From the NCBI GenBank assembly GCA_030693325.1, contig JAUYAV010000019.1, positions 134,618 through 198,617 on the forward strand: DNA of 64,000 bases, written 5' to 3'. A model generated the notes under the pieces. It was not told the DNA's origin, made no database searches, and saw only the letters and a program-made list of their open reading frames with translations. Positions 3,584 through 56,142 of the stretch are shown piece after piece. The stretch is from a bacterium (lineage in GTDB: Bacteria; Patescibacteriota; Minisyncoccia; UBA6257; MFKM01). Positions within the stretch are counted from its first letter, which is position 1, and each line of letters opens with the position of its first letter. A program made the position numbers and the translations under genes.

Positions 3584-4210
3584 ATGCGCATTAAAAATAA
3601 CAAAGGCCAGGCCCTGATAGAAATTCTTGTCGGTTTGGCTGTGGGCGCTATTTTAATAGGCGGGGCGACTGCGGCGATAGTGGCAATTTTGCGTTCCAAT
3701 TTGGAAAGTAAAAATTTTCAAGCCGCTTCTTCTCTGAGTCAGGAATTATTAGACGATGCCAAAACGATGGCCGAAGCCGACTGGCATAATATTTATAATT
3801 TAAGCAAGGGTTCCGGCACCCAATATTACGTGGCGGCTTCCGGTACAGTCTTGGCTGTTTTTTCCGGTACCACCACAACTCTGGTTGGAAATATCACTTA
3901 TACCAAATTTTTTTCCATAGAGGATGTCGGCCGTGATTCCTCCAATACTATCGTGGCCAGTGGCGGCACTGATGACCCCTCTACTCAAAAAATCACCAGC
4001 CATGCCCAGTGGCCAAGCGCCGGTAAAACATCGGATGTGCCTCTTATTGTTTATTTGACGCGCTGGCGAAATATAATTTCTCAACAGACCAATTGGTCGG
4101 GAGGGGTTGGTCAGACGGAGCCAGTTCTTGAATTCAGCAATCAATTCGCCAGCTCCACGGGTATTGATTATTCCTCCAGTACCGGCTCAATCATTATTCA
4201 GGGATTTTAA
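3584..4210 (+). CDS. Prepilin-type protein (second pilin/pseudopilin)
   Basis: N-terminus NKGQALIEILVGLAVGAIL: G|QALIE prepilin motif. Confidence 0.75.
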   Translation: MRIKNNKGQALIEILVGLAVGAILIGGATAAIVAILRSNLESKNFQAASSLSQELLDDAKTMAEADWHNIYNLSKGSGTQYYVAASGTVLAVFSGTTTTLVGNITYTKFFSIEDVGRDSSNTIVASGGTDDPSTQKITSHAQWPSAGKTSDVPLIVYLTRWRNIISQQTNWSGGVGQTEPVLEFSNQFASSTGIDYSSSTGSIIIQGF

Positions 4211-10218: not shown

Positions 10219-11098
10219 AGTTGAGAAATTTTACGAGCGGCTTGGCAGGCCGTCTGGTGATTTTTCTTTGAAAAGACGCCAGCAGGACGTTCTTTTTGAC
10301 AAAAAGTGGCTGCGGTTTCTGAAACTATCGCATTTTTTCAGGCATTTGCCTTTTATAGATTTTATTTTAGGAGCCGGGTCAATGGCGCTGGGGAATGTCC
10401 ACCAAGATTCGGATTTTGATGTTATTGTTGGAGCAAAATCCGGCAGAATTTTTACGGCCAGATTTTTTTGTATTTTAATGTTCGGTTTATTGGGCCGGCG
10501 CCGCCACGCTAAGCGTGGCTATCTGCCCCGCTCAGCGGGGCGCCAAAAACTTTCACATCGGGAAGCCGCCAGTAATAAAATTTGTTTTAATCATTTTGTC
10601 ACTCCGCGGAGTTATTGCCTGAAACCGCCCCACAATATTTATTGGCGGGAACTTTATCAGAATTTGGTTCCGATTTACGGCCGAAAAGAAAAAATCAGGG
10701 AATTTTTTGAAGCCAATAATTGGATGGGGGAGCGGATTTACCCCGTTAGAAGTTCAGCTAAGTTTTCGGGTTTTTCAACGAACGAAAGCGAATTCGCCTG
10801 CGGCTCCAATTTTTCAAAGAAAAAAGCTTTGTTGAAAACTTCTAACGGGGTTTATTCCGATGACTTGCGCCATGGATTTTATGAGCCGAGTTTTATTGCT
10901 TCTATTTTGGAAAAAATGTTAAGCGGCCGGTTTGGTGATTTTATAGAACGAATATTGAAACAAATTCAAATTAAAAGAATTAAAAAAAGCCCGAAAGACA
11001 GTTTGGGATTTGAGCCGCGAATGGTTTTCAATAATGATGAACTGGAGTTTCATCCCGACACCTTGAGAATCCATAAATTGCTGTCCGATGAAAAGTAA
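10202..11098 (+). CDS. Hypothetical protein with a Pol-beta-like nucleotidyltransferase motif (GS…DSDFDV). It hosts a copy of the GC-rich in-frame element.
   Basis: GAGSMALGNVHQDSDFDVIV; GC-rich palindromic insert at 10498-10545. Confidence 0.4.
   Translation: MKTENKVEKFYERLGRPSGDFSLKRRQQDVLFDKKWLRFLKLSHFFRHLPFIDFILGAGSMALGNVHQDSDFDVIVGAKSGRIFTARFFCILMFGLLGRRRHAKRGYLPRSAGRQKLSHREAASNKICFNHFVTPRSYCLKPPHNIYWRELYQNLVPIYGRKEKIREFFEANNWMGERIYPVRSSAKFSGFSTNESEFACGSNFSKKKALLKTSNGVYSDDLRHGFYEPSFIASILEKMLSGRFGDFIERILKQIQIKRIKKSPKDSLGFEPRMVFNNDELEFHPDTLRIHKLLSDEK
10498..10545. repeat. GC-rich ~48-bp double-hairpin element (GGCGCC-GCCACGCTAAGCGTGGC-TATCT-GCCCCGCTCAGCGGGGC-GCC), in-frame inside the CDS
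   Basis: Near-identical to the reverse complement of 18810-18855 inside fusA. Confidence 0.85.
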
Positions 11099-14659: not shown

Positions 14660-15490
14660 CTAAAGTCCGAATAATCTAATAGCGTTTTGATAAGTTTGCT
14701 CCGCCACTTTTTCCAAGGAAAGACCGCAAATTTCGGCTATTTTTTGAGCCGTGTACTTGACATAAAGCGGTTCGTTTCTTTGGCCACGGTAGGGGACAGG
14801 CGCCAAATAAGGGCAGTCGGTTTCAATCAATATTTTTTCCAGCGGCATATCTCTGATAATGTCGTCATAGTCGGAAGAATAGGTGATTATTCCTGTAAAC
14901 CCGAGATACAAACCTAAATCCAAATATTGTTTCGCCTGTTGACTATTGCCCGAAAAACAATGGACTACGCCTTTAAATTGATATTCGGTATTTTTCAATT
15001 CTTTGATGAGTTCATCATAAGCTTCACGGCAATGGATGATAAGCGGTTTATCTAATTCTTGAGCTAATTTTAAATGGTTTAAAAATAATTCTTTTTGTTT
15101 GATTCTTAGTTGCGGATCGGTTGTCCGATAATAATCCAGGCCGGTTTCGCCGACAGCCACAACCTTATCAGAACTTTTTGCTAAAGCTAAATATTTTTGG
15201 TAATCAAAATTTTCATCTCCGACATGGGTAGGGTGGAGCCCGATAGCCGCCCAAACTCCTTTTTCGTAATTTCCGGCGATAGCCACCGCTTTTTCGCTGG
15301 TATCATATCTAGAGCCGACATTAATCAGCCAAAGATTTTCATCAAGGCATTTTTTGATGATTTTCGGATAGTCGTCATTAAAGGCCTTGAAATTAAGATG
15401 GCTGTGGGAATCAAAAAATTTCATAATAAATTTATAACGCATTTTATCTATAAGAGCAACTGGATTTCGCATTTGCGAGTTATAAAACAA
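14660..15490 (-). CDS. tatD: TatD-family metal-dependent hydrolase/DNase (TTG start)
   Basis: FDSHSHLN motif; conserved TatD His/Asp/Glu residues. Confidence 0.85.
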   Translation of the reverse strand: MFYNSQMRNPVALIDKMRYKFIMKFFDSHSHLNFKAFNDDYPKIIKKCLDENLWLINVGSRYDTSEKAVAIAGNYEKGVWAAIGLHPTHVGDENFDYQKYLALAKSSDKVVAVGETGLDYYRTTDPQLRIKQKELFLNHLKLAQELDKPLIIHCREAYDELIKELKNTEYQFKGVVHCFSGNSQQAKQYLDLGLYLGFTGIITYSSDYDDIIRDMPLEKILIETDCPYLAPVPYRGQRNEPLYVKYTAQKIAEICGLSLEKVAEQTYQNAIRLFGL

Positions 15491-15753: not shown

Positions 15754-16515
15754 ATGAGAAAAGCAAAACATCGGAATGGTGTGCGATATTCTCTATGGGT
15801 AAAAGAAAAGACAGTCGCGTTACGGCAGGAGGGAAAAACTCATCGTGAGATTGTGAAAGAATTGGGCATTAGTCTCGGCTCTGCTGATTTATGGACGAAG
15901 GGGATAGCGTTGTCGCGCGAACAGAAAATTGCGATACAAAGAAGGCGTAATAAGCATATCTTTACGCCCAAAGAAAGAAAATTAATATCAGAGAGATTGA
16001 GGCCATTTCAATATCAATTGCAATATCGCAATGAAGATCTGATTGATAAAATAAGAAAATTTTATGCGGAAAACGGGAGAATTCCTCTCAAGCGCGAGTT
16101 TAATTCCCTCAGAATTTTTAGAGAACGTTTTGGTAGCTGGAATAATGCAATTAAATTAGCCGGATTTGAACCAAATCAAGTTATATTCTCAAAGAAATTC
16201 ATCGCTAAAGACGGACATATTTGTGATTCATTTGCGGAAAAAATCGTAGATGATTGGTTATCCTACTACCGCATTAAACATGAGAGAAACTTTCCTTATG
16301 AAAACACAAAAATGACCGCTGATTTTAAGACGGGCAATTTTTTGATAGAATATTTTGGCCTTGCCGGAGAAATAAAAGTTTATGATCAATTAATCAAAAA
16401 GAAAAGAATTTTAGCCAGAGATAGAAAAATGAGCCTTATTGAAATTTATCCCAAAAATTTATTTTCAAAAGATTATAAAACTTTTTTAAGAAAAATATTC
16501 AAACCGCTATCTTAG
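15754..16515 (+). CDS. Hypothetical protein with an N-terminal HTH, an HNH-endonuclease-associated repeat (GSWNNAIKLAGF) and a possible C-terminal nuclease-like domain
   Basis: REIVKELGIS HTH; FRERFGSWNNAIKLAGFEP matches the HNH-associated repeat; adjacent to tRNA-Pro. Confidence 0.4.
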   Translation: MRKAKHRNGVRYSLWVKEKTVALRQEGKTHREIVKELGISLGSADLWTKGIALSREQKIAIQRRRNKHIFTPKERKLISERLRPFQYQLQYRNEDLIDKIRKFYAENGRIPLKREFNSLRIFRERFGSWNNAIKLAGFEPNQVIFSKKFIAKDGHICDSFAEKIVDDWLSYYRIKHERNFPYENTKMTADFKTGNFLIEYFGLAGEIKVYDQLIKKKRILARDRKMSLIEIYPKNLFSKDYKTFLRKIFKPLS

Positions 16516-36507: not shown

Positions 36508-37365
36508 TTATTTTAAATTATACCGTCCTAAATTTTCTTTGATTATACCTTTAATAACTAAGAAAGCGATGGTTTTATTAACGACTTGCGAGTCCAGTTT
36601 AGTTAATTCAATAATTTTGTCAATAGAAAGTGATTTTTTATTTTTCGGAAATATTTTTAAAATCAATTCTTCTTCGGGGCTGAAATTTTCTTTTGAGGTT
36701 ATCGGTTTGATATTTAAATCGTCTAAAATATCTTTAGCGGAAATAGCCAAGCGCGCTCCTTCCCGGATTAACCGGTGCGAACCGGCATAATTATAATGAT
36801 TGGCCGGGCCGGGCACTATAAAAACTTCCCGGTTTTGCTCCAGAGCCAGCCGGGCGGTTACTAATGAACCGGAGCGTTCCGGGGCTTCCACTACGATGGT
36901 CGCCAGGCATAAGCCACTGACAATCCGATTGCGAGCTAAAAAGTTGGAAGGAAAAGCGGGTTCATCGGGGGCATATTCGGAAATTATCGCTCCGTCCAAT
37001 TCTAAAATTTTTTCAGCCAGATTTTTGTTCTGGCTGGGATAAATTTTATTCAAGCCATTGCCTAAAACCGCCAGAGTTTTCCCCTTAGCCGCCACCACGC
37101 CTTCATGAGCCGCGGTGTCAATTCCCATCGCCAAGCCGCTGACGATAACGCAGCCGGCCTCGCTTAACTCTCTGGCTAAGGTTCTGGCGATTAAACAGCC
37201 GTTTGGCGTGGCCTTGCGGGTGCCGACAATGGCGAGGTGAGGGAGTTTTTCGTTTGACAGATTTCCTAAGATATATAAGTTCGCCGGCGGGTCCGAAATT
37301 TGTTTTAAAAGAAAAGGATAGCTGGAATCCTTTGAAGTTATTTTTCTAATTTTTTTATTGTTCAA
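36508..37365 (-). CDS. dprA: DNA processing protein DprA (Smf)
   Basis: GLAMGIDTAAHEGV Rossmann-like DprA motif; conserved dprA-topA pair. Confidence 0.9.
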   Translation of the reverse strand: MNNKKIRKITSKDSSYPFLLKQISDPPANLYILGNLSNEKLPHLAIVGTRKATPNGCLIARTLARELSEAGCVIVSGLAMGIDTAAHEGVVAAKGKTLAVLGNGLNKIYPSQNKNLAEKILELDGAIISEYAPDEPAFPSNFLARNRIVSGLCLATIVVEAPERSGSLVTARLALEQNREVFIVPGPANHYNYAGSHRLIREGARLAISAKDILDDLNIKPITSKENFSPEEELILKIFPKNKKSLSIDKIIELTKLDSQVVNKTIAFLVIKGIIKENLGRYNLK

Positions 37366-43088: not shown

Positions 43089-44216
43089 ATGGAGCCGTTA
43101 GCATCAAAAATAAGACCGAAAATTTTGGAAGAATTTGTCGGTCAGGAGCATTTAGTCGGAGAAGGAAAGCCTTTTAATATAGCTATAAAACAAAAGCATT
43201 TGTTTTCTTTTATTTTATGGGGGCCTCCTGGAACCGGAAAAACTACTTTGGCCAAGATATATGCCAATAGTCTGAACGCAAAAATTTATGAATTGTCCGC
43301 GGTTTCGGCCGGAAAAGCGGATATCAGAAAAATACTAGAAGAAGACTCGGACGGAGTTCCTAAAGTTTTATTTTTAGACGAAATACATCGCTTTAATAAA
43401 TCCCAGCAGGACTTTCTGCTTCCTTATGTTGAAAGAGGGGAGATAATTTTGATTGGCGCCACTACCGAAAATCCGAGTTTTGAAGTGATATCGGCTTTGC
43501 TTTCCCGATGCCGAGTTTTCGTTTTAAATGAACTTTCAGAAAATAACATAAAGGCCATTATTAAAAGAACCGGAATGAAAATGGATGAAGCGGCGGAAGA
43601 TTGGCTGGTAAATGCGGCCAATGGCGATGCCAGACAAGTAATAACTTTGTTGGAAAACACCAGCGAACTTTATAAAAAGATTACGGTGGAAAATTTAAAA
43701 AACGTTCTCCAATCAAAGTTTTTGAGATACGACAAAGTCGGGGAAGAACATTACAACACTATTTCCGCCTTTATCAAAAGCATGAGAGCGAGCCAGCCTG
43801 ATGCGGCTTTGTATTATTTGGCTCGGATGATTGATTCCGGCGAAGACCCAAAATTTATAGCCAGAAGAATGGTTATTTTTGCTTCCGAGGATATTGGTTT
43901 GGCTCAGCCCACAGCCTTAGTAGTGGCTAATGATGTTTTTCGGGCCGTGGAAATAATCGGTCTGCCCGAATGCGGTATTAATTTGGCTCACGGAGTAGCT
44001 CATCTGTGCCAGTGTAAAAAAGACAGAAGAGCCCATGATGCTTATATGGAAGCGATGGAAGACGTAAAAAATTTCGGCAATCTTCCTATCCCTTTAAGTT
44101 TGCGGAATCCTGAGACAAAATTAATGAAAGATTTAAATTACGGCAAAGGATACGAAAAATATTCCAAGGAATCTTTTCTGCCCGAAAAATTAAAAGGAAA
44201 AAAATATTTAAAATAA
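43089..44216 (+). CDS. rarA: Replication-associated recombination protein RarA/MgsA (AAA+)
   Basis: WGPPGTGKTTLA; FLDEIHRFNKSQQD; MgsA C-terminal helical domain. Confidence 0.9.
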   Translation: MEPLASKIRPKILEEFVGQEHLVGEGKPFNIAIKQKHLFSFILWGPPGTGKTTLAKIYANSLNAKIYELSAVSAGKADIRKILEEDSDGVPKVLFLDEIHRFNKSQQDFLLPYVERGEIILIGATTENPSFEVISALLSRCRVFVLNELSENNIKAIIKRTGMKMDEAAEDWLVNAANGDARQVITLLENTSELYKKITVENLKNVLQSKFLRYDKVGEEHYNTISAFIKSMRASQPDAALYYLARMIDSGEDPKFIARRMVIFASEDIGLAQPTALVVANDVFRAVEIIGLPECGINLAHGVAHLCQCKKDRRAHDAYMEAMEDVKNFGNLPIPLSLRNPETKLMKDLNYGKGYEKYSKESFLPEKLKGKKYLK

Positions 44217-47200
44217 TGCCCCTGAATCTGGAAAAACTTAATAAAGAGCAAAAAGAAGCCGTGGTTCATGGCCAGGGGCCGCTTTTGATTGTGGCCGGAG
44301 CCGGAACCGGCAAAACGACGGTTATCACCCAGAGAATAGTTAATTTAATTGAAAAGGAGAAAGTTAAACCTGAAGAAATATTGGCCGTCACTTTTACCGA
44401 AAAGGCGGCCGCGGAAATGGAAGAAAGGGTTGATATTCTTTTGCCTTATGGCTATGTGGATTTGTGGATTTCCACTTTCCATTCTTTCTGCGAAAGGGTC
44501 TTGCGCGATTACGCTTTGGATATCGGCTTGCCGGCGGATTTTAAGATTTTAGACAACACGGCCGGCTGGCTTTTGGTTTATCGCAATCTGGAAAAATTCA
44601 ATCTCGATTATTACAAACCCCTGGGGAATCCGACCAAATTTATCCAGGCCCTGATTTCTCATTTTTCCCATTGCAAAGACCAGGCGATTTATCCCGAAGA
44701 TTATTTAAAATACGCCGAAAAGCTGAAAACCCGGGATGACGCGCCGGAAGAAAATGAAACCGAGAGGATAAAAGAAGTGGCGAACGCTTACCATGTTTAT
44801 CAGCGTTTGCTTTTGGAGAACAGTTCTCTGGATTTTGGCGATTTGATAAATTATTGTTTGAAATTGTTTCAGAAAAGGCCGCTGATTTTGAAAAAATATC
44901 GGGAAAAATTCAAATACATTTTAGTTGACGAATTTCAGGACACCAACTGGGCGCAATACGAGCTTATAAAAATCTTAGCGGCGCCGAAAAATAATCTGAC
45001 CGTCTGTGCCGACGATGACCAATGTTTGCCGGGCAATTCAAAAATAGAGATTTTTGAGAACGATAAAATCAAAATAAAGGAAATTAAAAAAATTGAAATA
45101 GGCGATAAAGCATTAACAGCCGTAGGAAAAGGTCATATAGGGGTTGCTAATGTGAATAATGTTTTCGTCAAAAACAAGAGGGCAAAGATATTAACCGTTA
45201 AAACAGAAGGCGGCTATTCAGTAAGCGTGACAGATAATCATAAAATGTTTTGCTGTGTTCCAAGAACTGCTCGGCAGAATTATCATTATGTTTATTTGAT
45301 GTTTAGAAAAAATTTGGGGTGGAGGATAGGGGTAACTGATGATTTAATTTTGCGGCTTAGGATAGAGCGTTCGGCAGATAAAATTTTGGCAATAAGGGCC
45401 TTTAACACTGATTCTGAAGCGAGATATCACGAAACATTGTGGTCGTTGAAGTACGGCATACCCACTTGTTGTTTTAAAAGCAGGGAAGGCATCGTTATCA
45501 AAGAAAATGAGTTGGCTAAATTATATAAGGAAATTAATACCGAAGATAATATACGGAAATTAGCTCAAGATTTAAATATTGACTTAGATTCGCCCCATTA
45601 TTGTCTAGATGCCGTTAACAGGGGAAGAAGCGTCAGGATAATCATCAATTTGCAAATGTGCTACAGAAATTACCGAAGCAAGGAACACGTCAGAAGCGAG
45701 AAAACTCTGCTTTTGAATGGCTTGACAAGGCACAGGCTTTATTTGGAAACGTCAGACAAGCAAACAATTAAGAAGCTAAAAACAGCAGGATATATTCTTT
45801 ATAAAGCGAGGAAAGGAATGAAATTAAACATAGAAGGAGGCGATGTAAAAGATCTTGAAGGAAAAGCAAGAGCGATAGAAAAAATTACAGGCGGATTCAT
45901 AGAATATAAATTTAATGTTGCGAGCAAATACAGCAAGCCGTCAGGCACGGCACGAAATTATATGTCTTTGATTATGCCCGCAAAAAATTTAGTTTTAGGA
46001 CACTATCTTCCGGTAAAAAAAGGCGCTGAGATAATTTACGATAAAATAATTTCAATTAAAGAAGTTGATAAAAAAATAAAAGTATATGATTTGGAAATCG
46101 ACAAAACCCATAATTTTATAGCCAACGGAATAGTGGTCCACAATTCTGTTTATAGGTGGAGAGGGGCATCTTATAGCAACATAGTCCAATTCAATAAAGA
46201 TTTCCCGAAAGCCGAGCAAATTTCTTTGGTTAAAAATTACCGGTCCGGCCAGAATATTTTGGATTTGGCTTATAAATTCATAAAAGCCAATAATCCCGAC
46301 CGCCTTGAATACGTAAATAAAATAAACAAGGAATTAATCGCCCAGGAAAAAGGTGAAGGCAAAATAGAGCATATTTTGGCGAAGAACCTGGAAGAAGAAG
46401 TTGATAAAACAATAAAGAAGATCTTAGGGATTCTTAAAAAAGACAAAGACGCCGGTTATAACGATTTTGCGATTTTAGTCAGAGCCAATGACGCGGCCAA
46501 TCCTTTTATTAAGGCCCTGGAGCGCGCGGGCTTGCCTTATCAATTTTTGGCTTCAAGAGGGCTTTATTCAAAGCCGGTTATTTTGGACGTAATCTCATAT
46601 TTCAAACTTTTGGATAATTACCACGAGAGCCCGGCGGTTTACCGGATCTTGAATATGCCATTTTTGGAAATCCCGCCCGCGGATATTATGAAGCTTACTC
46701 AATACAGCCACAAAAAAACAAAGTCGCTTTATGAGGCGATGGAAGAGCTTCCTCTAATTCCGGGAATTTCTCCGGAAGTTCAGGAAAAAATCCTTTTCGT
46801 TTTGAGCTTGATTAAAAAACACGCCATTTTTGCCAAAGAAAAATCGGTCTCGGAAATAATGATTGCATTTCTTAAAGAGTCGGGATATATAAAATATTTA
46901 ACGAAAAAAGACGACAAAGAACAGTTTGATTTACTCAATCAATTCCATAAAAAAGTGAAGAATTTTGAGAGTGCGGCAATAGAGCCGACTTTAGGCAATT
47001 TTATGCGGGAAATAAATCTTGAGATAGAATCCGGCGAAGAAGGAAAGCTTGAATTTGACCCCGAGCAAGGCCCGGACATGATAAAAATAATGACTATCCA
47101 CGGAGCTAAGGGCTTGGAATTCAAATATGTTTTTTTGGTTAATATGGTGGATAAAAGATTTCCGACAATGGAAAGAAAGGATTTAATTGAGCTACCCGAA

Positions 47201-48298
47201 GATTTAATCAAAGACATAAAGCCAACTGGGGATGTTCATTTGCAGGAAGAAAGGCGCATTTGCTATGTGGCCATTACCAGAGCCAAGAAAGATATTTATT
47301 TCACTTCGGCTGAAGATTATGGCGGGGTGAGAAAAAAGAAATTGTCTCGCTTTCTGATTGAAATGGGATACCAGGAAAAAACTGAAAAACCGAAAAACTT
47401 AAAAACTCAAAACGAAATGCTCGCGGAGAAACCGATTTCGGTCGGGACAAAAAACAAGCCGATGCCGGATTATCTGCCGAAACATTTTTCGTATTCGCAA
47501 TTGGCGGCTTTTGACAAGTGTCCGTTGCAGTATAAATTCGCTTTTATTCTGAAGGTTCCGACCAGAGGCAAGGCCGTGTTTTCTTTCGGGAAGACGATGC
47601 ATAATACTTTTTATGAATTTTTAAAATACGCCAACGAAGGCAGCGCGAGCAATCAAACAAATTTGTTCGGGTTTGAAGAAAAAACAATTAAGGCCGGTAA
47701 AAAAGCCCTGTCTGCCGGCAGGCATGAAAAATCTTTAGATTTAGACGATTTAACGGAAATTTATGAGAAAAACTGGATTGACGAATGGTATGAGAGTAAA
47801 AAACAAAAAGAGGATTATCGCAAGCTCGGCAGGAAAATAATTAAAGATTTTTATGATGAATTTGTAAAAAATCCGCCGAAAGTTTTAAAAATCAATAATG
47901 CCTTTGCTTTGGAAATGCCGTTTAACCTGAAAATAGGGGGATATGCCTTATACGGCGTGGTGGACAGAATTGATGAAGAGGATGGTGGCGTGACCATCAT
48001 TGATTACAAAACAGGAAATTCTAAAGACAAGCTGTATCCGGGCGATAAAGAACAATTGTTGATTTATCAGATAGCGGCTGAAGAGATATTCAAACTAAAG
48101 CCCCAAAAATTGGCTTATCATTATTTAACCGACGGCAAGAAAGCGTCTTTTCTCGGAACGGAAAAAGAGAAAGAACAGCTGAAAGAAAAAATAATCCAAG
48201 AGATTGAAGAAATAAAAGGCAGTGATTTCAAGGCGAAGCCGAGTCAGCTTTGCGCTTTCTGCGATTTCAAGGATATTTGCGATTCCGCTCAGAGATAG
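44216..48298 (+). CDS. UvrD/PcrA-family helicase fused to a C-terminal RecB/Cas4-like PD-(D/E)xK nuclease (AddA-like). It is interrupted by an intein in helicase motif III.
   Basis: AGAGTGKTT; DEFQDTN; …CADDDQ|C…HN|SVYRWRGAS; C-terminal IIDYKTG and CAFCDFKDICD. Confidence 0.9.
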   Translation: MPLNLEKLNKEQKEAVVHGQGPLLIVAGAGTGKTTVITQRIVNLIEKEKVKPEEILAVTFTEKAAAEMEERVDILLPYGYVDLWISTFHSFCERVLRDYALDIGLPADFKILDNTAGWLLVYRNLEKFNLDYYKPLGNPTKFIQALISHFSHCKDQAIYPEDYLKYAEKLKTRDDAPEENETERIKEVANAYHVYQRLLLENSSLDFGDLINYCLKLFQKRPLILKKYREKFKYILVDEFQDTNWAQYELIKILAAPKNNLTVCADDDQCLPGNSKIEIFENDKIKIKEIKKIEIGDKALTAVGKGHIGVANVNNVFVKNKRAKILTVKTEGGYSVSVTDNHKMFCCVPRTARQNYHYVYLMFRKNLGWRIGVTDDLILRLRIERSADKILAIRAFNTDSEARYHETLWSLKYGIPTCCFKSREGIVIKENELAKLYKEINTEDNIRKLAQDLNIDLDSPHYCLDAVNRGRSVRIIINLQMCYRNYRSKEHVRSEKTLLLNGLTRHRLYLETSDKQTIKKLKTAGYILYKARKGMKLNIEGGDVKDLEGKARAIEKITGGFIEYKFNVASKYSKPSGTARNYMSLIMPAKNLVLGHYLPVKKGAEIIYDKIISIKEVDKKIKVYDLEIDKTHNFIANGIVVHNSVYRWRGASYSNIVQFNKDFPKAEQISLVKNYRSGQNILDLAYKFIKANNPDRLEYVNKINKELIAQEKGEGKIEHILAKNLEEEVDKTIKKILGILKKDKDAGYNDFAILVRANDAANPFIKALERAGLPYQFLASRGLYSKPVILDVISYFKLLDNYHESPAVYRILNMPFLEIPPADIMKLTQYSHKKTKSLYEAMEELPLIPGISPEVQEKILFVLSLIKKHAIFAKEKSVSEIMIAFLKESGYIKYLTKKDDKEQFDLLNQFHKKVKNFESAAIEPTLGNFMREINLEIESGEEGKLEFDPEQGPDMIKIMTIHGAKGLEFKYVFLVNMVDKRFPTMERKDLIELPEDLIKDIKPTGDVHLQEERRICYVAITRAKKDIYFTSAEDYGGVRKKKLSRFLIEMGYQEKTEKPKNLKTQNEMLAEKPISVGTKNKPMPDYLPKHFSYSQLAAFDKCPLQYKFAFILKVPTRGKAVFSFGKTMHNTFYEFLKYANEGSASNQTNLFGFEEKTIKAGKKALSAGRHEKSLDLDDLTEIYEKNWIDEWYESKKQKEDYRKLGRKIIKDFYDEFVKNPPKVLKINNAFALEMPFNLKIGGYALYGVVDRIDEEDGGVTIIDYKTGNSKDKLYPGDKEQLLIYQIAAEEIFKLKPQKLAYHYLTDGKKASFLGTEKEKEQLKEKIIQEIEEIKGSDFKAKPSQLCAFCDFKDICDSAQR
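45023..46144 (+). mobile_element. Intein (~374 aa) with a putative, degenerate homing-endonuclease core
   Basis: Cys1 (CLPGNSKI); block B TDNHKM; C-terminal VVHN followed by Ser+1; the extein motif III DDDQ/SVYRWRGA is restored on excision. Confidence 0.8.
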
Positions 48299-48540: not shown

Positions 48541-49281
48541 ATGATTTCTTTAATTTATGAAACTAAGGATTTTATCGCGGTTAATAAACCGTCCGGAGTT
48601 TTGGTTCATCCGATTGAAAGCCAAAAAGAGCAAACTGAATTAACATTGGTTGATTGGGTTTTGGAAAGATACCCCGAAGTAAAAAATGTCGGAGATGACC
48701 CGATAATTCGGCCGGGAATCGTTCATCGGCTGGATCGCGACACTTCCGGAGTGATTATAATCTGCCGCAACCAGCAGTTTTTTGAATATCTGAAAAATCT
48801 TTTCAAAACTCACCAGATTAAAAAGACATATCTGGCCTTAGTTTGGGGGAAACTGGAACCGAAATCCGGCGAAATAAACGCCCCAATCGGCATTAAAAGC
48901 GGAACAATAAAAAGAACCGTCTGCCAGAGAAAAGCTAAAGACATAAAGGAGGCGATAACAGAATATAAAGTTTTAAATTATTATCAGTATAAATCAGATT
49001 TAAATCAGCATGAATCAGCGACTTTCAGCTTGCTGAAAGTAACTCCTAAAACCGGTCGGACGCATCAGATTAGAATTCATTTGGCGTCAGTCAATCATTC
49101 GGTGGTGGGAGACAAGCTTTATGGTTTTAAAAAACTGAAAATACCGTTTGATTTAAACCGGCAATTCCTTCATGCTACTTCTTTGGAGTTTAGTTCGGCT
49201 GACGGGCATCGTATTAAACTTGAAGCTGAATTGCCGGAAGAACTCAGAAGGATTATTGACACGCTTGACGAAAAAAGTTAA
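48541..49281 (+). CDS. RluA-family pseudouridine synthase
   Basis: HRLDRDTSGVII catalytic Asp motif. Confidence 0.85.
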   Translation: MISLIYETKDFIAVNKPSGVLVHPIESQKEQTELTLVDWVLERYPEVKNVGDDPIIRPGIVHRLDRDTSGVIIICRNQQFFEYLKNLFKTHQIKKTYLALVWGKLEPKSGEINAPIGIKSGTIKRTVCQRKAKDIKEAITEYKVLNYYQYKSDLNQHESATFSLLKVTPKTGRTHQIRIHLASVNHSVVGDKLYGFKKLKIPFDLNRQFLHATSLEFSSADGHRIKLEAELPEELRRIIDTLDEKS

Positions 49282-49292
49282 GCTAAATAACT

Positions 49293-49691
49293 ATGGAAAA
49301 AGAGATTTTGGAAAAAATAAAACCTGGCGTTACTATCCGGGTTCATGAAAAATTCAAGGAAGGGGAAAAAACCCGGACTAGTCTTTTTGAAGGAACGATT
49401 CTTGCCCGCAAGCACGGCTCGGAAATCGGGGCGACTTTCACTGTCCGAAGAGTGAGCCAGGGAGTAGGCATGGAAAAGATTTTCCCGATTCATTCACCGA
49501 ATATTTATAAAATAGAAATTTTAAGAAGCCCTAAGGTGAGGCGGGCGAAACTTTATTATCTGCGGAGAGAATCCGAAAAAGAAGTCCGGCGAAAACTTAA
49601 AAAAGAAATGGTCAAAACCGTGGCCGCCAAGAAAACAGAATTAACCGAGGAACCGGTGGAAGTTCAAATCAACGAAAATTCGGTAAAATAA
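49293..49691 (+). CDS. rplS: 50S ribosomal protein L19
   Basis: [22 protein letters not shown]…[11 protein letters not shown]. Confidence 0.9.
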
Positions 49692-49701
49692 AAACCCAAA
49701 A

Positions 49702-49783
49702 GCCCAGGTGGCGGAACTGGTATACGCGTGCGTTCGAGGGGCGCATGCCGCAAGGATTGAGGGTTCAAATCCCTCCCTGGGCA
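49702..49783 (+). tRNA. Type II (long variable arm) tRNA with a Leu-like body (A73, GCGG…CGCG D-arm). The anticodon reading is ambiguous: GAG (Leu) or CGA.
   Basis: Manual fold: acceptor GCCCAGG/CCUGGGC; T-arm GAGGGTTCAAATCCCTC; anticodon region GUGCGUUCGAGGGGCGCA. Confidence 0.7.
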
Positions 49784-49855
49784 CATTATCCTTGCTTAAT
49801 AATCGGTTTTTTGTTAATATTAAAATACCCAAGCGGGTATTTTAATTTTGTCTAT

Positions 49856-51841
49856 ATGGCTAAAAAACAGGGAAAAATTAAGGAAAAATCAATAAAAAAA
49901 GGAACCGCTGAAGCTACTCCGGCTAAAGAGAAGGAGGTTTCTTACGAAGCCAAGGATATCTATGTTTTGGAAGGGCTGGAACCGGTCAGAAAACGTCCGG
50001 CGATGTATATCGGCTCAACCGGCGTTGACGGGCTTCATCATTTAATTTGGGAAGTAGTGGACAACTGCATTGACGAGGCGATGGGCGGTTACGCCAAAAA
50101 TATCAAAGTGGAATTGTTTAAAGATAACCGGGTGGCGGTGGCTGATGACGGCCGCGGCATTCCGGTAGATATTCATCCTCACACTAAAAAATCGGCCTTG
50201 GAAACCGTGTTGTGCACTTTGCATGCAGGTGGAAAATTCGGGGGCGAATCATACAAAGTGGCAGGCGGGCTTCATGGTGTCGGCGTTTCGGTGGTCAACG
50301 CTTTATCAAGATGGCTGCGGGTTGAGGTTTGTCGAAACGGCAATCTTTATTCGCAGGAATACAAAGAAGGCAAGCCGCAATACAAAGTCAGAAAAGAAGG
50401 GAAATGCGGGCAGACGGGGACTAAAGTAATTTTTGAACCTGATACGAAGATTTTTCAAGCGGTTGAATTTGATTTGAAAAAAATAATCGGCCATCTCCGA
50501 CAGCAGGCCTATTTGACGCCGAAGTTAAGAATAGAAATTATTGACAATCGTTCGGAACAGACCGAGGCCTATGGTTTTTATTTTGAAGGAGGACTTAAAT
50601 CTTTTGTTAAATATTTAATCGGGAACAAAGAACCGATTCAAAATCAAATTTTTCATCAAAGCCGGAGTTACGAAAAAATTTTGGTGGAATCGGCTTTTAC
50701 TTACACCAACGACATTGAAGTTCAGGAAATAAGTTTCGCTAATAATATTTATACCCCCGATGGCGGGATGCATTCAACCGGTTTTCGGTCGGCTTTGACC
50801 AGAACTATTAATGATTTCGGCCGCCGCGAGGGCTATCTTAAAGAATCCGAGGAAAATTTAATCGGCGAGGATGTCCGCGAAGGTTTGGTGGCGGCGGTGT
50901 CGGTAAAATTAGGGGAACCTCAATTTGAGGGGCAAACCAAAGCCCGGTTGGGCAATCCGGAAGCCCGAACTGCGGTGGAAACCGTAGTCAATGAAGCACT
51001 TAAGGAATTTTTTGAGCGTTATCCATCTGACGGCCGAAGGATTGTTGAAAAATGTCTTTTGACGGCTAAAGCGCGGCAGGCGGCCAAAGCGGCCAAAGAA
51101 ACGGTTTTGAGAAAAGGGGCTTTAGAAGGAATGACTTTACCGGGAAAATTAGCTGATTGCAGTTCTCGCAGTCCCGAAGAATCAGAGCTGTTCATCGTTG
51201 AGGGCGATTCGGCCGGCGGAAGCGCCAAGCAGGGCCGCGATAGGCGGACTCAGGCCATCTTGCCTTTGCGGGGCAAAATTCTTAATGTGGAAAAATCAAG
51301 AATGGACAAGATGCTGATGAACCAGGAAATAAGGAACTTGGTTATCGCCATCGGCACGGCTATTGGTGAAGCCTTTGATCTTTCAAAACTTCGCTATCAT
51401 AAGGTGATTATTATGACTGATGCCGATACTGACGGCGCTCACATCCGGACCTTGTTGTTGACTCTTTTTTACCGCTATCTTGTGCCTATAATTGAAAACG
51501 GGCATCTTTTTATCGCCCAGCCGCCGCTTTTCCGTCTTCAGAAAGGCAAGGAAGTCCATTATGCTTACAAAGAAGCGGAACGGGACCGTATTCTTAAATT
51601 ATTTTCTGACGATGGGAAAACCGGCGTGACTATCCAACGCTATAAAGGTTTGGGAGAAATGAATCCCGAACAACTCTGGGAAACAACGATGAATTCCGAT
51701 TCCCGCCAGTTGAAACAGGTGATGATAGAAGATGCGGTTGAAGCCGACCGGCTTTTTGATATTCTCATGGGGGAGGAAGTGGAGCCCCGGAAGAATTTCA
51801 TCCAGGCGCATGCCACCGCCGTTAAAAATTTGGATATTTGA
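49856..51841 (+). CDS. gyrB: DNA gyrase subunit B (or topoisomerase IV subunit B). The true start is MAKKQG; the track's N-terminal extension overlaps the tRNA.
   Basis: GHKL ATPase, TOPRIM (EGDSAGG) and [11 protein letters not shown] motifs. Confidence 0.85.
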
Positions 51842-51884
51842 TTCTTCATTTACAAATTCCAATTTTAATATATAATCTTAAATT

Positions 51885-52073
51885 ATGCTCACTAAGATCA
51901 AAAATTTTCTGCAGGAAGCCATACAGGAATTCAAAAGAATCAATTGGCCTTCACGCCAAGAAGCTACCCGTTACACTTTATTTGTGATTGTTTTTTCTTT
52001 GGCAACGGCGGCATTCTTAGGATTAATTGATTTCATTTTTCTTTTTCTGTTAAATAAATTTTTTATAAAATAA
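51885..52073 (+). CDS. secE: Preprotein translocase subunit SecE
   Basis: 62 aa, single C-terminal TM helix; upstream of nusG. Confidence 0.8.
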   Translation: MLTKIKNFLQEAIQEFKRINWPSRQEATRYTLFVIVFSLATAAFLGLIDFIFLFLLNKFFIK

Positions 52074-52074
52074 A

Positions 52075-52623
52075 ATGCCCAAACAAGCGCCAAAACAAGA
52101 ACGCCATTGGTATGCCATTCACACTTATTCCGGCTATGAAGATGCCGTAGTTCGCTATTTAAAACAGAGATTAGAATCTTTGGAAATGCAGGAAAAAATT
52201 TTTGAGGTATTAGTTCCAAAGGAGAAAAAAATTAAAATAAAAAACGGTAAGCGTCAGCAAATTGAAGAAAAAATTTATCCCGGATATGTCTTGGTTGATA
52301 TGATTTTGGACGATGATTCCTGGTATGTGGTCAGAAATACGCCAAGGGTAACCGGTTTTGTCGGGGCGGAAAGCACCAAGCCGACCCCGCTTTCTAAAGA
52401 AGAAATTGAAAGTTTGATGGCGAAGATGGGCGAGAAGGAAGCGAAATTCAATATTGACTTTAAGGTGGGAGAAATGGTAAAAATTGTTGATGGCCCCTTC
52501 AGAGACCATGACGGCAAAATAGCGGAAATTATAGAAGAGCACGGCAAGGTTAAAGTGAAGGTTCCTATTTTCAGCCGTGAAACCATAATTGAATTAGATA
52601 TGTTGCAGGTAAAAAAATTATAA
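52075..52623 (+). CDS. nusG: Transcription antitermination factor NusG
   Basis: NGN domain [11 protein letters not shown] plus a C-terminal KOW. Confidence 0.93.
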
Positions 52624-52624
52624 T

Positions 52625-53047
52625 ATGGCAAAACTAATAAAAATAATTACAAAATTGCAGATTCAGGCCGGCAAGGCCAATCCGGCGCCTCCGGTGGGCA
52701 CGGCCTTAGGCCCGCATGGAGTTAATATCGGGCAATTCTGCTCTCAATTCAATGAAGCAACCAAGGAAATGAGTGATGTTATTCCGGTTGTGATTACCAT
52801 TTATCAGGACCGAAGTTTTGAATTTAAGCTGAAAACCCCGCCGGTTTCGGCTTTGCTTAAAAAAGCCGCTGGTTTGGAAAAAGGCTCCGGTGATCCGTTG
52901 AAAACCAAAGTGGGGAAAGTAACCAAGGAAGATGTCCGCAAAATTGTTGAAAGGAAAATGGTGGATTTGAACACCGACAGCATAGAATCGGCCGAGAAAA
53001 TTGTAGCAGGAACGGCGAGAAGCATGGGGATTGAGATAGAAAAGTAG
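52625..53047 (+). CDS. rplK: 50S ribosomal protein L11 (no rplA follows)
   Basis: [21 protein letters not shown]. Confidence 0.95.
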
Positions 53048-53065
53048 AAAGATAAATTGACCCCT

Positions 53066-53109
53066 AAGGCCTTCTGATTTAGAATCAAATCAGAAGGCCT
53101 TTTTATTTT
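53066..53109 (+). terminator. Strong rho-independent terminator after rplK
   Basis: aaggccttctgattt-agaatc-aaatcagaaggcctttttatttt. Confidence 0.8.
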
Positions 53110-53110
53110 A

Positions 53111-53719
53111 ATGCGCAAAAATCCCTATAAAGGAAAATTTATTGTTTTTGAAGGATTGGATGGTTCCGGGAAAAGCGTTCAGATGGAGCTTTTAGATAGA
53201 TTCTTAAAAAAAGGTGGATTTGACGTTGTTTTGACAAAAGAACCAACGATGGATTCGCGCGCCGGCAAAACGATTCGTCTTGTTTTGGAAAGAAAGAAAA
53301 AAATTTCGCCTAAAAAACTTCAGGCGTTGTATAGCCAGGATAGAAAAGCCCATCTAACCGGGCTTATTATGCCTAATCTCAAAAAAGGTAAAGTTGTTAT
53401 TTCTGACAGATATTGTTTTTCGTCTTTTGCCTATGGAAGCATGGGAGTGCCGTTAAGCTATCTTCTAAAAATTAATGATAAATTTTTATTGCCTGATTTG
53501 GTTTATTTTATAAATACCAACCCGGAAACCTGTATTTCACGGATAGAAAAAAGAGGGAAGAAGAAAACTCTGTTTGAGTATAAAGAAAAATTGGAAAATG
53601 TTTATCAAAATTATAAAAAAATTCTCAAGAAATTCAAAAATGTTATCATAATTGACGGAGAGAAAAGCATCAAAGAAACACACCGGCAGATAATTAAAAA
53701 GATTATAAATTATGTATAA
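53111..53719 (+). CDS. tmk: Thymidylate kinase
   Basis: FIVFEGLDGSGKS P-loop. Confidence 0.85.
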   Translation: MRKNPYKGKFIVFEGLDGSGKSVQMELLDRFLKKGGFDVVLTKEPTMDSRAGKTIRLVLERKKKISPKKLQALYSQDRKAHLTGLIMPNLKKGKVVISDRYCFSSFAYGSMGVPLSYLLKINDKFLLPDLVYFINTNPETCISRIEKRGKKKTLFEYKEKLENVYQNYKKILKKFKNVIIIDGEKSIKETHRQIIKKIINYV

Positions 53720-55169
53720 ACCCACTATTGGTTTGGAAATTCACTCTGAATTAAAGACCAGAAGCAAAATGTTTTGTGCTAGTCCGAATAACCCCGATGA
53801 AACCCGGCCTAATTTCAATGTTTGCCCGATTTGCCTGGGGCATCCCGGAACCCTGCCGGTTATTAACGAAGAAGCCGTAAAATCAGTTATCAAGCTGGGC
53901 TTGGCTGTTGCCGGGAAAATTCCTTTAGTTTCCCGTTTTGACCGCAAAAGTTATTTTTATCCCGACTTGCCCAAAGGTTATCAGATTTCCCAATATAAAC
54001 AGCCGTTGGTGGAGGGCGGAACTTTGAACGGCGTTAAAATCACCAGAGTCCATTTAGAAGAAGATACTGGCACGCTTTCTCATGATAAAGAAAATCACAG
54101 TTTGGTGGATTTCAACCGCGCCGGCGTTCCTTTAATGGAATTAGTTACCGAGCCGGATATCAGAAGCGGTGAAGAAGCGGTGGCTTTTGCCAAAGAATTA
54201 CAGCTTATTTTACGGTATCTGGATATTTCCGAGGCCAATATGGAAAAAGGGCAAATGCGGGTGGAGGTAAATATTTCGCTTCGTGAAATCGCGGATATCA
54301 GCATGAATCAGTTTGATAATCAGCATGAATCAGCGTCTACCTTAGGAACTAAGGTAGAAGTAAAAAATTTAAATTCTTTTAAGTCGGTGAAAGAGGCGGT
54401 TGATTATGAAATAAAAAGACAGACTGAAATTTTAGAGGAGGGGAAGCAGGTGATACATGAAACCCGCGGCTGGGATGACGTAAAAAGAATAACAGTCAGT
54501 CAGCGCAGTAAGGAAAAAGCCCATGATTATCGTTATTTTCCGGAACCGGATTTGCCGCCGCTGGATTTAGTCAAATTTAATATTAAAGAATTGAAAGATT
54601 CGCTTCCGGAATTGCCGGCGGCAAAAAGAAATCGTTTTGAAAAAGAATATGGCCTGACGCTGGCCCAGGCGGAAATTCTCATTGAAGATAATTATATCGC
54701 CGGATATTTTGAAAAGGCCGTGAAGGAACTTAAACTTCTGGCTTCAGATTATAAACCCCAAGTTTTGTTTAATTATTTAACTTCAGACTTTTTTGGCTTG
54801 ATAACCGAACAGGGGATTTCTTTAAAAGAATCAAAAATCAATCCGCGGCAGTTAGCCGAACTAACGGGTTTGATTATTGAAAATAAAATTTCCAGCCGAA
54901 TCGCCAAGGATGTTCTGGGAGAAATGTTTTTATCCGGCTTAAACCCGCGGCAGATTATCCAGGAAAAAGGATTAAGTCAGATTTCTGATGAAGCGATAAT
55001 TAAAAAAACTATAGAGGAGGTGATAATGGAAAATTCGGCGGCCTTGTCTGATTATAGAAAAGGCAAAGCCAATGCCTTGCAATTTTTAATCGGTCAGGCG
55101 ATGAAAAAGCTCAAAGGCCAAGCCAACCCTGAAATCCTGAAAAATCTTTTTGAAGAATCTTTACGATAA
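53712..55169 (+). CDS. gatB: Asp/Glu-tRNA(Asn/Gln) amidotransferase subunit B. It contains the in-frame AATCAGC mini-repeat.
   Basis: PTIGLEIHSELKT; full GatB/YqeY domains. Confidence 0.92.
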   Translation: MYKPTIGLEIHSELKTRSKMFCASPNNPDETRPNFNVCPICLGHPGTLPVINEEAVKSVIKLGLAVAGKIPLVSRFDRKSYFYPDLPKGYQISQYKQPLVEGGTLNGVKITRVHLEEDTGTLSHDKENHSLVDFNRAGVPLMELVTEPDIRSGEEAVAFAKELQLILRYLDISEANMEKGQMRVEVNISLREIADISMNQFDNQHESASTLGTKVEVKNLNSFKSVKEAVDYEIKRQTEILEEGKQVIHETRGWDDVKRITVSQRSKEKAHDYRYFPEPDLPPLDLVKFNIKELKDSLPELPAAKRNRFEKEYGLTLAQAEILIEDNYIAGYFEKAVKELKLLASDYKPQVLFNYLTSDFFGLITEQGISLKESKINPRQLAELTGLIIENKISSRIAKDVLGEMFLSGLNPRQIIQEKGLSQISDEAIIKKTIEEVIMENSAALSDYRKGKANALQFLIGQAMKKLKGQANPEILKNLFEESLR

Positions 55170-55179
55170 TCAAAAGATT

Positions 55180-55217
55180 TACTATTGTAATTCCACGATC
55201 GTGGAATTACAATAGTA
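55180..55217. repeat. 38-bp perfect palindrome, copy 2, between the convergent gatB and miaA genes; it overlaps the last miaA codons
   Basis: Identical to 4424-4461. Confidence 0.9.
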
Positions 55218-56142
55218 AAAATTTATTTGCCATTGAACGGGCCTGATTTTCCGTCTTAATCCAAATAATACTTTTATCCCTTTTAAACCAGGTTATCTGG
55301 CGTTTGGCGTAGCGGTAAATTTCTTTTTTCATTTGCTCGGTCATTTCTTCATAAGAAATCAAACCGCGCAGATAATCGGCGGCCAGCCGGTATTCCAAGC
55401 CCAATTCCCCAAACCGTTTCCAGTTTAGTCCTTTTTTGTGGAGTTTTTCTATTTCTTCAATCAGACCTTTTTTCAGCGTTTTTTCCAATCTTTGATTGAT
55501 TAACTGCCGAAGTTCGTTTGGTGTTTTTTTGATGCCTATTTTTAATACCGCAAACGCGGTCGCTGATTTCCGCTGATTCCGCTGATTTACGCTGATAGCA
55601 TTTCGCTCTAACGGCGGTACGGGAGATCCGGTTGTGATAACGATTTCCAGGGCCCTGACTAATCTTCTTCGGTTGCAAGGGTCAATATTAGCCGCTCTTT
55701 TGGGATCAAATTTCTGAAGCATCCGGAAAAGTTCTTCTAATGATTTTTTTTCAAGCCGTTTTCGCAAACCTTTCTGAGGAGCCACGGCCGGCAATTTATA
55801 ATCATAAATCAAAGCGTCAATGTAAAATCCGCTGCCGCCGACTATTATTGGAAATTTATTTTTTTTAAAAATTCCATTCAGGATTTTTTTGGCCGCTTTT
55901 TGATATTGGACCACAGTATAAGTTTTTTGCGGCTTAACAATGTCAATCATATGATGTTTGACGCCTTTCATTTCTTTTTTGGTTATTTTTTCCGTGCCGA
56001 TATTCAGTCCTTTATAAATCTGGCGGGAGTCAGCCGAAATTATTTCGCCGTTAAATTTCTTGGCGATTTTAATGGCCAATTGCGATTTCCCGGAAGCCGT
56101 CGGCCCGAGAATGACGATGATTTTATTATTTATATTTTTCAT
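55207..56142 (-). CDS. miaA: tRNA dimethylallyltransferase
   Basis: GPTASGKS P-loop; IISADSRQIY. Confidence 0.9.
   Translation of the reverse strand: MKNINNKIIVILGPTASGKSQLAIKIAKKFNGEIISADSRQIYKGLNIGTEKITKKEMKGVKHHMIDIVKPQKTYTVVQYQKAAKKILNGIFKKNKFPIIVGGSGFYIDALIYDYKLPAVAPQKGLRKRLEKKSLEELFRMLQKFDPKRAANIDPCNRRRLVRALEIVITTGSPVPPLERNAISVNQRNQRKSATAFAVLKIGIKKTPNELRQLINQRLEKTLKKGLIEEIEKLHKKGLNWKRFGELGLEYRLAADYLRGLISYEEMTEQMKKEIYRYAKRQITWFKRDKSIIWIKTENQARSMANKFLLL

Follow-up and report, generated by a model that had tools for sequence, protein, structure and literature searches.

Three in-frame repeat arrays in rluA, gatB and miaA of a Patescibacterium as probable copies of a small dispersed palindromic element

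A 64,000-nt stretch of a Patescibacterium genome (assembly GCA_030693325.1, contig JAUYAV010000019.1; hereafter the window) carries three short arrays of units of the ATCAGCG type, each within the coding sequence of a housekeeping gene, namely an rluA-family pseudouridine synthase gene, gatB and miaA. Each of these sites probably represents one copy of a tiny, non-autonomous and dispersed palindromic element that is widespread in Patescibacteria, also termed the Candidate Phyla Radiation (CPR), and is tolerated in frame. The anatomy and distribution of the element, its in-frame location within loops, its presence or absence in relatives and the constraint on its frame were observed directly. 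The copies surviving in essential genes would be those that are sense-oriented, in frame and placed in permissive, disordered surface loops, with the single open frame encoding a hydrophilic peptide that would likewise be disordered. The element, which may be selfish or neutral, would turn over fast, with slippage and gene conversion homogenising its units and copies. It would have spread by a route involving hairpins or single-stranded DNA (ssDNA) or template switching, with subsequent homologous recombination between related lineages in the form of allelic patch exchange, and the adjoining perfect hairpin would be built in part from neighbouring host codons.

The host organism belongs to the Paceibacterota/Wolfebacteria neighbourhood, and its three host genes were identified by profile matches (Table 1), in agreement with an earlier reading made from the letters alone (hereafter the sequence-only reading). 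The latter had also pointed to an 18-mer shared by the rluA-family gene and gatB beyond chance expectation. This 18-mer, AATCAGCATGAATCAGCG, was found exactly at 49003–49020 and 54318–54335 of the plus strand, inside arrays 1 and 2, respectively, with related minus-strand copies at 55561–55597. With up to three mismatches allowed, it gave five matches in the window against 0.05 expected, and the three-unit pattern AATCAGN{3,6}AATCAGN{3,6}AATCAGCG matched only the three sites, with none expected. With the arrays masked, ATCAGCG was observed 16 times against 14.2 expected (z = 0.7) and AATCAGCG seven times against 8.0 (z = -0.6), both relative to their sub-words. Outside the arrays, neither the 7-mer nor the 8-mer thus exceeds expectation, and the signal lies in the arrays and not in base composition; a Chi-like word, or one like a DNA uptake sequence (DUS), was rejected on the same count. 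No further arrays were found elsewhere in the 64 kb under looser unit definitions, and a peptide-signature scan for decayed copies in 62 open reading frames (ORFs) of the window returned the three known sites only. The three arrays lie within 6.6 kb (48983–55596) around gyrB, for which the rough chance estimate is about 0.03; gene conversion or copying over short distances may lie behind this clustering.

All three arrays start with TATCAG and end with AATCAGCG[A/T]C, and their units are spaced by about one helical turn. Every site holds four units, not two as the sequence-only reading had it from the 18-mer. Its four tandem 9-nt units in miaA were likewise found as four units on the minus strand (55590–55596, 55580–55586, 55571–55577 and 55561–55567, with first bases at 55596, 55586, 55577 and 55567), although with a spacing of 10-9-10 rather than as a 9-nt tandem repeat. 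Array 1 is translated as YQYKSDLNQHESA, array 2 spans 39 nt or 13 codons (peptide ISMNQFDNQHESA), and array 3 spans 36 nt or 12 codons (peptide ISVNQRNQRKSA). The units inside each array occupy all three codon phases (ATC AGC / AAT CAG /.AA TCA GCG), and the two ATCAGCATGAATCAG copies in gatB are translated differently, as ISMNQ and (N)QHES. The repeat is therefore a motif at the DNA level and not a codon repeat. The proposal that it always sits in one frame and encodes N-Q-H/R thus applies to the last units, which do share a frame (AAT CAG C.. /.AA TCA GCG), but not to the arrays as a whole.

Table 1. Host genes, repeat arrays and adjoining features in the window
Feature	Positions	Strand	Description
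Host gene 1, RluA-family pseudouridine synthase	48541..49281	+	TIGR00005, E=1.4e-54
Array 1, in rluA	48983..49020	+	Four ATCAG units starting at 48983/48993/49004/49014, spacing 10-11-10
Array 1 hairpin, ACTTTCAGC-TT-GCTGAAAGT	49021..49040	+	Perfect, 9 bp, directly 3' of array 1, encodes TFSLLKV
Host gene 2, gatB	53712..55169	+	NF004012, E=1.9e-179
Left-arm remnant in gatB, CGTGAAATCGCGGAT (REIAD)	54282..54296	+	Two degenerate CGCnGAT-type units, 15 nt
Array 2, in gatB	54297..54335	+	Four units starting at 54297/54307/54319/54329, spacing 10-12-10
Array 2 hairpin, TCTACCTTAG-GAA-CTAAGGTAGA	54336..54358	+	Perfect, 10 bp, directly 3' of array 2; 3' half consists of host TKVE codons
Host gene 3, miaA	55207..56142	-	TIGR00174, E=2.9e-80
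Left-arm remnant in miaA, GAGCGAAATGCT (coding strand)	55597..55608	-	In all filled miaA alleles and none of the empty ones
Array 3, in miaA	55561..55596	-	Four ATCAGCG units, spacing 10-9-10
Array 3 hairpin, ACCGC-GTTT-GCGGT (coding strand)	55547..55560	-	Short, directly 3' of array 3, encodes TAFAV

Species-representative genomes were scanned with the three-unit pattern, which returned at least 120 loci; related loci are referred to here by L numbers. Among the CPR matches listed, TATCAGCATAAATCAG...AATCAGCATAAATCAGCG was found in frame in an AsnB-like protein, in ValS from Liptonbacteria (two inserts) and in MurC from Saccharibacteria. Metagenomes were scanned with the pattern ATCAGCGTAAATCAGCGN{2,6}ATCAG, and counts refer to the matches listed; this sample was picked by DNA pattern, and conservation statistics are trustworthy only for the orthologues obtained by protein searches (rluA, gatB and miaA). 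On low-GC contigs, 43 of 80 non-redundant arrays consisted of exactly four units with a spacing of 10-12-10. The consensus of this module, ATCAGCGTAAATCAGCGTAnnwATCAGCGTrAATCaGCG, comprises 39 nt or 13 codons and reads ISVNQRxNQR[K/E]SA. Positions left unspecified by the search pattern were near-invariant, and variation was greatest at the spacer positions 19–22, at position 31 and at positions 30, 36 and 39, which are codon third positions.

Many copies are preceded by a left arm of four ACGC[A/G]GATnn units, which together with the right arm of four ATCAGCG units (10-12-10) makes up the complete element, an imperfect palindrome of ~85–95 nt with a systematic central mismatch. Complete palindromic copies, in which the left arm folds onto the right arm as an imperfect hairpin, were found in gatB of L122 and in L129, L236, L201, L164, L178 and L245, and full copies also occur between genes (L136 and L141). 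Intragenic copies usually keep the 39-nt right arm and scraps of the left arm. Compared with L122, whose complete left arm also opens with CGTGAAATCGCGGAT, the gatB copy of the window has kept 15 nt of the left arm and the whole right arm. Its miaA copy consists of GAGCGAAATGCT plus a right arm that is 3 nt short, and the canonical 39-nt version occupies the same site in L171, L289 and L290.

Most of the sampled low-GC copies, and all three in the window, lie inside ORFs, and 22 of the 23 distinct host ORFs among the low-GC matches listed carry the module sense-oriented and in phase 0. Five of the six frames of the consensus module are interrupted by stop codons, with frame +0 alone open. The impression of a common frame encoding N-Q-H/R is explained by this single stop-free frame, as essential genes would retain only sense, in-frame copies. 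The module was found in at least 20 gene families (>20 Pfam families), with hosts that include a DegT aminotransferase, IF-2, DUF2229, TatD, DUF72, PEP synthase/PPDK, LigT and FBP aldolase, as well as ThrRS, IleRS, LeuRS, LepA, MurD, MurE/F, ClpB, GatA and MiaA, the site in the last being that of the window copy. A specificity for tRNA genes was rejected in view of this diversity, and no insertion-site consensus was found in the flanks of 57 copies. The sequence-only reading was thus right in proposing a short repetitive DNA element residing in frame in unrelated housekeeping genes.

Matches outside the CPR were long, near-perfect intergenic hairpins, the arms of which consist of 9–10-nt AATCAG[C/T]G sub-repeats. 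These hairpins, which measure up to about 200 nt, were found in L004, L036 and L044 (Chitinophaga sp. RCC_12), in L001, L005 and L070 (Desulfobacterota), in L035, L045 and L086 (Parabeggiatoa), in L034 and in L096, where seven units of about 115 nt follow each other in tandem. Their termini are lineage-specific, e.g. TGTCTGAAC...GTTCAGACA, and no Rfam family matched them.

The three arrays coincide with loops. Relative to the respective structures, array 1 aligns with an 11-aa gap in RluD, array 2 with a gap of 10–13 aa in GatB, and array 3 with an 8-aa gap in MiaA. In an AlphaFold model of GatB from the window, residues 195–209, between strands 182–192 and 215–220, have a predicted local distance difference test score (pLDDT) <50 and no secondary structure, which predicts a disordered loop for the insert. 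Alignment bore out the indel nature that had been suspected, for each of the three copies, against homologues as well as close orthologues. The nearest genome found, GCA_036169835.1 (the source of L285 and L291), shares about 89–90% nucleotide identity with the window; its gatB and miaA sites are empty and its rluA array has two units only. In this rluA copy (L285), exactly two units are gone through a 21-nt in-frame deletion between ATCAG repeats.

At the gatB site, the array is absent from L284 and L291 (89% nucleotide identity), and the closest GatB orthologues have the 7-residue loop LSQDNEM in place of LREIADISMNQFDNQHESASTL of the window. At the DNA level, L284 (89% identical overall) reads TCTCAAGATAATGAAATG (18 nt) between TCGCTT and GGT, where the window has 63 nt. 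This filled/empty comparison, at 89% nucleotide identity, revealed no direct repeat that would indicate a target-site duplication, and the flanks of the gatB insert gave no clear signal of a recombination patch derived from a donor resembling L122. In miaA, the closest orthologues, L291 (89% nucleotide identity) and L124, lack the array and have PVPEIKKESPYQVLKIG where the window has PVPPLERNAISVNQRNQRKSATAFAVLKIG. The residues of the gatB and miaA inserts are thus missing from the closest orthologues, whereas those of rluA are shared within its clade: the insert is common to relatives at 81–83% amino-acid identity and to one at 65%, and it is older than the other two.

Among 120 GatB homologues, 65 have a short loop and four have this element, and many others contain different sub-repeat elements in the same loop, of the types TDKHG, SDKRQ, NPKSQ and IREISGQ. 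Array-type inserts with varying unit number and phase were found at the same position in 14 of 120 MiaA homologues; 11 of 120 RluA homologues matched the strict array pattern, and several more have degenerate array-type endings. As the same loops host several types of sub-repeat element, those of GatB, RluA and MiaA are permissive hotspots. Homologues P0024–P0112 have TDKHG, SDKRQxTSDK, NPKSQ/ISNFKSQ and TNNTNEIREISGQISENS types of short sub-repeat element in the GatB loop, and one MiaA (L121, 9041–10126, minus strand) contains GEWHIANGKWRIANG in its N-terminal part. Several sub-repeat families thus occur in the CPR GatB loop and in a MiaA, so that CPR proteins seem to acquire repeats in frame quite generally. 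Another insertion that recurs in GatB of the CPR, RPSxSEVEAxQNGAPRFFAxxEKGGVA, follows 'DLPILSL' in P0078, P0084, P0087 and P0091 (alignment A1, columns ~340–370); several lineages have it, and it looks like another inserted element.

These comparisons bear on two accounts that dispense with a dispersed element. According to the first, which the sequence-only reading had favoured, each array would be a coding micro- or minisatellite, prone to slippage, with a local origin and local expansion in its gene. The units are indeed directly repeated and homogenised within an array, the central spacing differs between copies (12, 11 or 9 nt), and the 21-nt contraction between ATCAG units in the closest relative, with two units lost, amounts to one slippage-type event. 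Otherwise, the design is fixed: copy number is four in most arrays, the period is irregular and not divisible by 3, an inverted left arm is associated, and the near-identical 39 nt recur in 20 or more unrelated genes as well as in the intergenic DNA of many genomes. As independent local origin cannot yield one sequence everywhere, we regard this model as largely refuted and very improbable. According to the second account, ISVNQRxNQRKSA would be a short linear motif added to many enzymes and selected as a peptide, consistent with the occurrence of similar peptides in many proteins and with the variability of codon third positions in the module. It is opposed by the finding that the same DNA units in different phases give different peptides (ISMNQ/QHES; PRLSALNQRQSA), and by codons that are fixed on minor ones of the host, namely GTA (11% of Val codons), CGT (10% of Arg codons), and the Ser codons AGC and TCA (17% each). 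Moreover, the insert is predicted to be disordered, it is dispensable in the nearest relatives, and intergenic copies exist. We deem this the least probable of the explanations considered here.

Copies and alleles also bear traces of exchange. Units are more alike inside an array than between orthologous arrays, and the spacers follow suit, with CATG in both halves of the gatB copy of the window, CGTA in L121 and L289, and CATA throughout L290. The CATG variant is old in rluA, as L286 and L288 have it, and it is also present in the gatB copy that is missing from the nearest relatives, so the exact 18-mer finds its best explanation in copying or gene conversion across the 5.3 kb that separate the two copies. 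In a neighbour-joining tree of MiaA computed with the loop left out, each filled allele is sister to empty alleles. All filled alleles have identical junctions, PPLE[R/Q]N...KSATAFA, and the empty ones read EIKKxSPYQ. Because deletion cannot regenerate the empty sequence, this tree, which is without support values, suggests that short allelic patches were exchanged several times by recombination.

Such exchange could also follow from an uptake-signal-like drive, in which the array biases DNA uptake or recombination during natural transformation and thereby spreads allele patches among CPR lineages. The interleaving, on the MiaA tree, of filled and empty alleles whose junctions are identical (a pattern that recurs in GatB and RluA) and the conservation of a DNA-level motif inside variable loops are in line with this proposal, as is the gene content of the window. 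The latter encodes DprA (36508–37365, minus strand) and two proteins with the type IV pilin motif for N-terminal methylation (3037–3528 and 3584–4210, both plus strand), a gene set that, by annotation, would be compatible with natural transformation. DUS and uptake signal sequences (USS) are single 9–12-mers that are hugely over-represented genome-wide. The CPR element resembles them in being a DNA motif kept in variable protein loops, in its inverted intergenic pairs and in its putative spread via recombination, and differs from them in that its word is not enriched outside the arrays of the window. In addition, there are only three arrays in the 64 kb, the patches are not near-identical between lineages (81–89% for miaA vs 66–80% in the flanks), and hairpins with the AATCAGCG sub-repeat occur in unrelated phyla too. 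We therefore hold such a drive to be improbable.

Orthologous arrays are conserved at the nucleotide level beyond their surroundings. Array 1 is 92–97% identical to its counterparts in L286 and L288, compared with 66–79% in the rest of rluA, and 10–12 out of 10–12 of its same-amino-acid codons are identical, compared with 53–57% elsewhere (Fisher p = 0.001–0.003). In gatB, two comparisons with the window gave 7–9 identical out of 7–9 same-amino-acid codons, and L122 against L121 gave 8/10, over a background of 42–55% identical synonymous codons (p = 0.003–0.03). The effect at synonymous sites is weaker in miaA.

Hairpins adjoin the arrays. A stem of >=6 bp, of variable sequence, directly follows 14 of 66 arrays, compared with 2% of control positions, and GAA loops closed by C-G are frequent in these hairpins. 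Loops of the C-GAA-G type form unusually stable DNA mini-hairpins. The DNA fold of the filled gatB allele has z = -4.65, vs 0.39 for the empty allele, and its hairpin differs from that of L121 by two compensatory pair changes. The 3' halves of the hairpins are host codons (TKVE in gatB and LLKV in rluA), and an equivalent of the miaA hairpin is also found in L171, L289 and L290. Across the 120 RluA homologues, array-type inserts tend to be accompanied by a conserved strand in its palindromic FSLLK version (Fisher p = 3e-6, ignoring phylogeny).

Several of these results weigh against a dispersed, merely tolerated element. Synonymous conservation in orthologous arrays, as it appears in the alignments, would not be expected of purely neutral junk; repeated recombination would be required to interleave miaA alleles that are filled or empty and yet agree in their junctions; and hairpins of variable sequence with compensatory changes point to either a structural requirement or a mechanistic footprint, e.g. 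inverted copying of the flanks by template switching. In addition, 20 ORFs of the window, the L193 repeat pair described below and the filled/empty gatB comparison yielded neither a mobilising enzyme nor a target-site duplication nor an autonomous partner. The synonymous conservation and the hairpins lend some weight to a functional cis-acting nucleic-acid element composed of array and hairpin, which is unlikely in our view. Here, the array would be a phased set of four sites for a DNA- or RNA-binding protein, arranged as two 17-nt half-sites 22 nt apart beside a stable hairpin, with selection acting on nucleotides and the peptide as a by-product. Array and hairpin would then constitute a functional signal of Patescibacteria on DNA or mRNA, possibly biasing recombination or uptake and spread by allelic patch exchange, with the 13 codons merely tolerated; we consider this a minority option as well.

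Apart from the conserved synonymous sites and the hairpins that keep their structure while their sequence varies, the cis-acting explanation draws on the conserved 10-12-10 spacing with its near-invariant unspecified positions, and on the non-canonical rluA version (10-11-10, CATG spacers), which is kept across lineages at 66–79% nucleotide identity. It is at odds with presence and absence in essential genes between genomes that are about 89–90% identical, with the tolerated deletion of two units, with many decayed copies and with host genes and positions that are highly diverse and follow no positional logic. No Rfam family corresponds to it, and stop codons fully account for the exclusive occurrence on the sense strand. 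The uptake or recombination drive, the microsatellite and the peptide motif are each less likely than this cis-acting element, and the small dispersed palindromic element remains the reading we favour.

Regarding the origin of this element, no transposase or REP-associated tyrosine transposase (RAYT; REP, repetitive extragenic palindromic sequence) was detected among the 20 window ORFs scanned or in the interval of L193. The latter locus contains a 210-nt inverted repeat pair (positions 6–215 and 10552–10761; 95%) that includes the array and flanks 10.3 kb. An autonomous transposon was rejected in this case, as the pair encloses NifU, cysteine desulfurase-like, AMMECR1, radical SAM, RtcB and LAGLIDADG genes and no transposase. 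A viral origin was likewise rejected: the CPR module was found on one viral contig only, and 38 viral matches to the loose pattern were ordinary tandem repeats or iterons. Rfam returned no family over the arrays of the window and 18 related loci. Literature searches with exact DNA and peptide strings and for intragenic repeats of CPR or Patescibacteria, the coverage of which was incomplete so that an earlier description is possible, did not retrieve the element. Palindromic amphipathic repeat coding elements (PARCELs) were rejected as its identity, since they are 25-residue tandem domains (PMC2996958).

The closest parallel is provided by the Rickettsia palindromic elements (RPEs), which are palindromic non-coding repeats found in frame in unrelated housekeeping genes and also outside genes; they are translated as extra segments compatible with the protein fold, and the mechanism of their mobility is unknown (PMC10969869). 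The CPR element shares with them an inverted-repeat architecture, in-frame residence in unrelated housekeeping ORFs, intergenic copies and inserts tolerated in loops. RPEs are about 100–150 bp long, belong to Rickettsia and are grouped in the families RPE-1 to RPE-10, whereas the element of the Patescibacteria ranges from a 36–39-nt arm to about 90 nt, has four ~10-nt sub-repeats per arm, is open in a single frame and precedes a perfect hairpin of variable sequence. By analogy, it is best described as RPE-like and not as a member of an RPE family, being set apart by size, architecture and phylum. REP doublets forming hairpins (REPINs) are short imperfect palindromes made of inverted doublets, with hairpins predicted in ssDNA or RNA, present in many dispersed copies and better conserved as doublets (PMC3116915). 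REPs and REPINs are extragenic and RAYT-linked, in contrast to the CPR element, which is mostly intragenic in the sample and has no RAYT among the ORFs tested; moreover, a REPIN arm is a single REP and that of the CPR element an array of sub-repeats.

The miniature transposable elements with inverted repeats known as MITEs, such as enterobacterial repetitive intergenic consensus (ERIC) sequences, the Coxiella QMITE and Correia-like elements, are small non-autonomous repeats whose inverted arms can lie in ORFs and contribute peptides (PMC10969869, PMC5896051). The CPR element is much smaller than typical MITEs and, in the comparisons made, showed no target-site duplication, cognate insertion sequence or terminal inverted repeats distinct from its body. 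It also differs in units, period and phylum from the short tandemly repeated repetitive (STRR) sequences and small dispersed repeats of cyanobacteria. These have units of 7–27 nt, are both dispersed and in tandem, sometimes lie in genes without breaking the frame, and are of unknown function; they lack a fixed four-unit module and a single-frame design.

If the three sites are indeed copies of such an element, Patescibacteria would carry an RPE-like class of selfish DNA, undescribed in the literature searched, in genomes that are already minimal and almost devoid of intergenic space. Reduced to ~13 codons with a single open frame, this class would remodel surface loops of essential enzymes, including aminoacyl-tRNA synthetases, Mur ligases, GatCAB, MiaA and translation GTPases, and would account for many 'lineage-specific insertions' in CPR proteins. 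It would also serve as a marker of recent recombination between lineages and call for caution in the alignment, phylogeny and structure prediction of CPR proteins. Taken together, synonymous conservation, structurally conserved hairpins and interleaved alleles would indicate either a new mobilisation route, based on hairpins or template switching, or a cis-acting function.

Other insertions and neighbouring genes were observed along the way. CPR class I aminoacyl-tRNA synthetases L172 and L213 (IleRS) and L038 (ValS) have a His_Phos_1 histidine-phosphatase domain inserted in the catalytic domain. The TatD gene of the window (14660–15490) encodes 276 aa and has no array, compared with open frames of about 313 aa in array-bearing TatD orthologues, and it is adjoined by a gene for an HNH_repeat protein, associated with homing endonucleases (15754–16515, plus strand). 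Upstream of the rluA-family gene, positions 44216–48298 (plus strand) encode a 1360-aa UvrD/PcrA-like helicase with an intein, the splicing regions of which span residues 270–345 (N-terminal) and 622–644 (C-terminal); residues 1187–1356 of this protein form a C-terminal Cas4/PD-(D/E)XK nuclease domain. Between rplS and gyrB, a tRNA gene (49702–49783, plus strand) runs into the 5' end of the gyrB ORF as called mechanically. The gyrB of the closest relative (L285, 4687–7974) contains an intein and encodes 1095 aa, whereas that of the window is intein-free.

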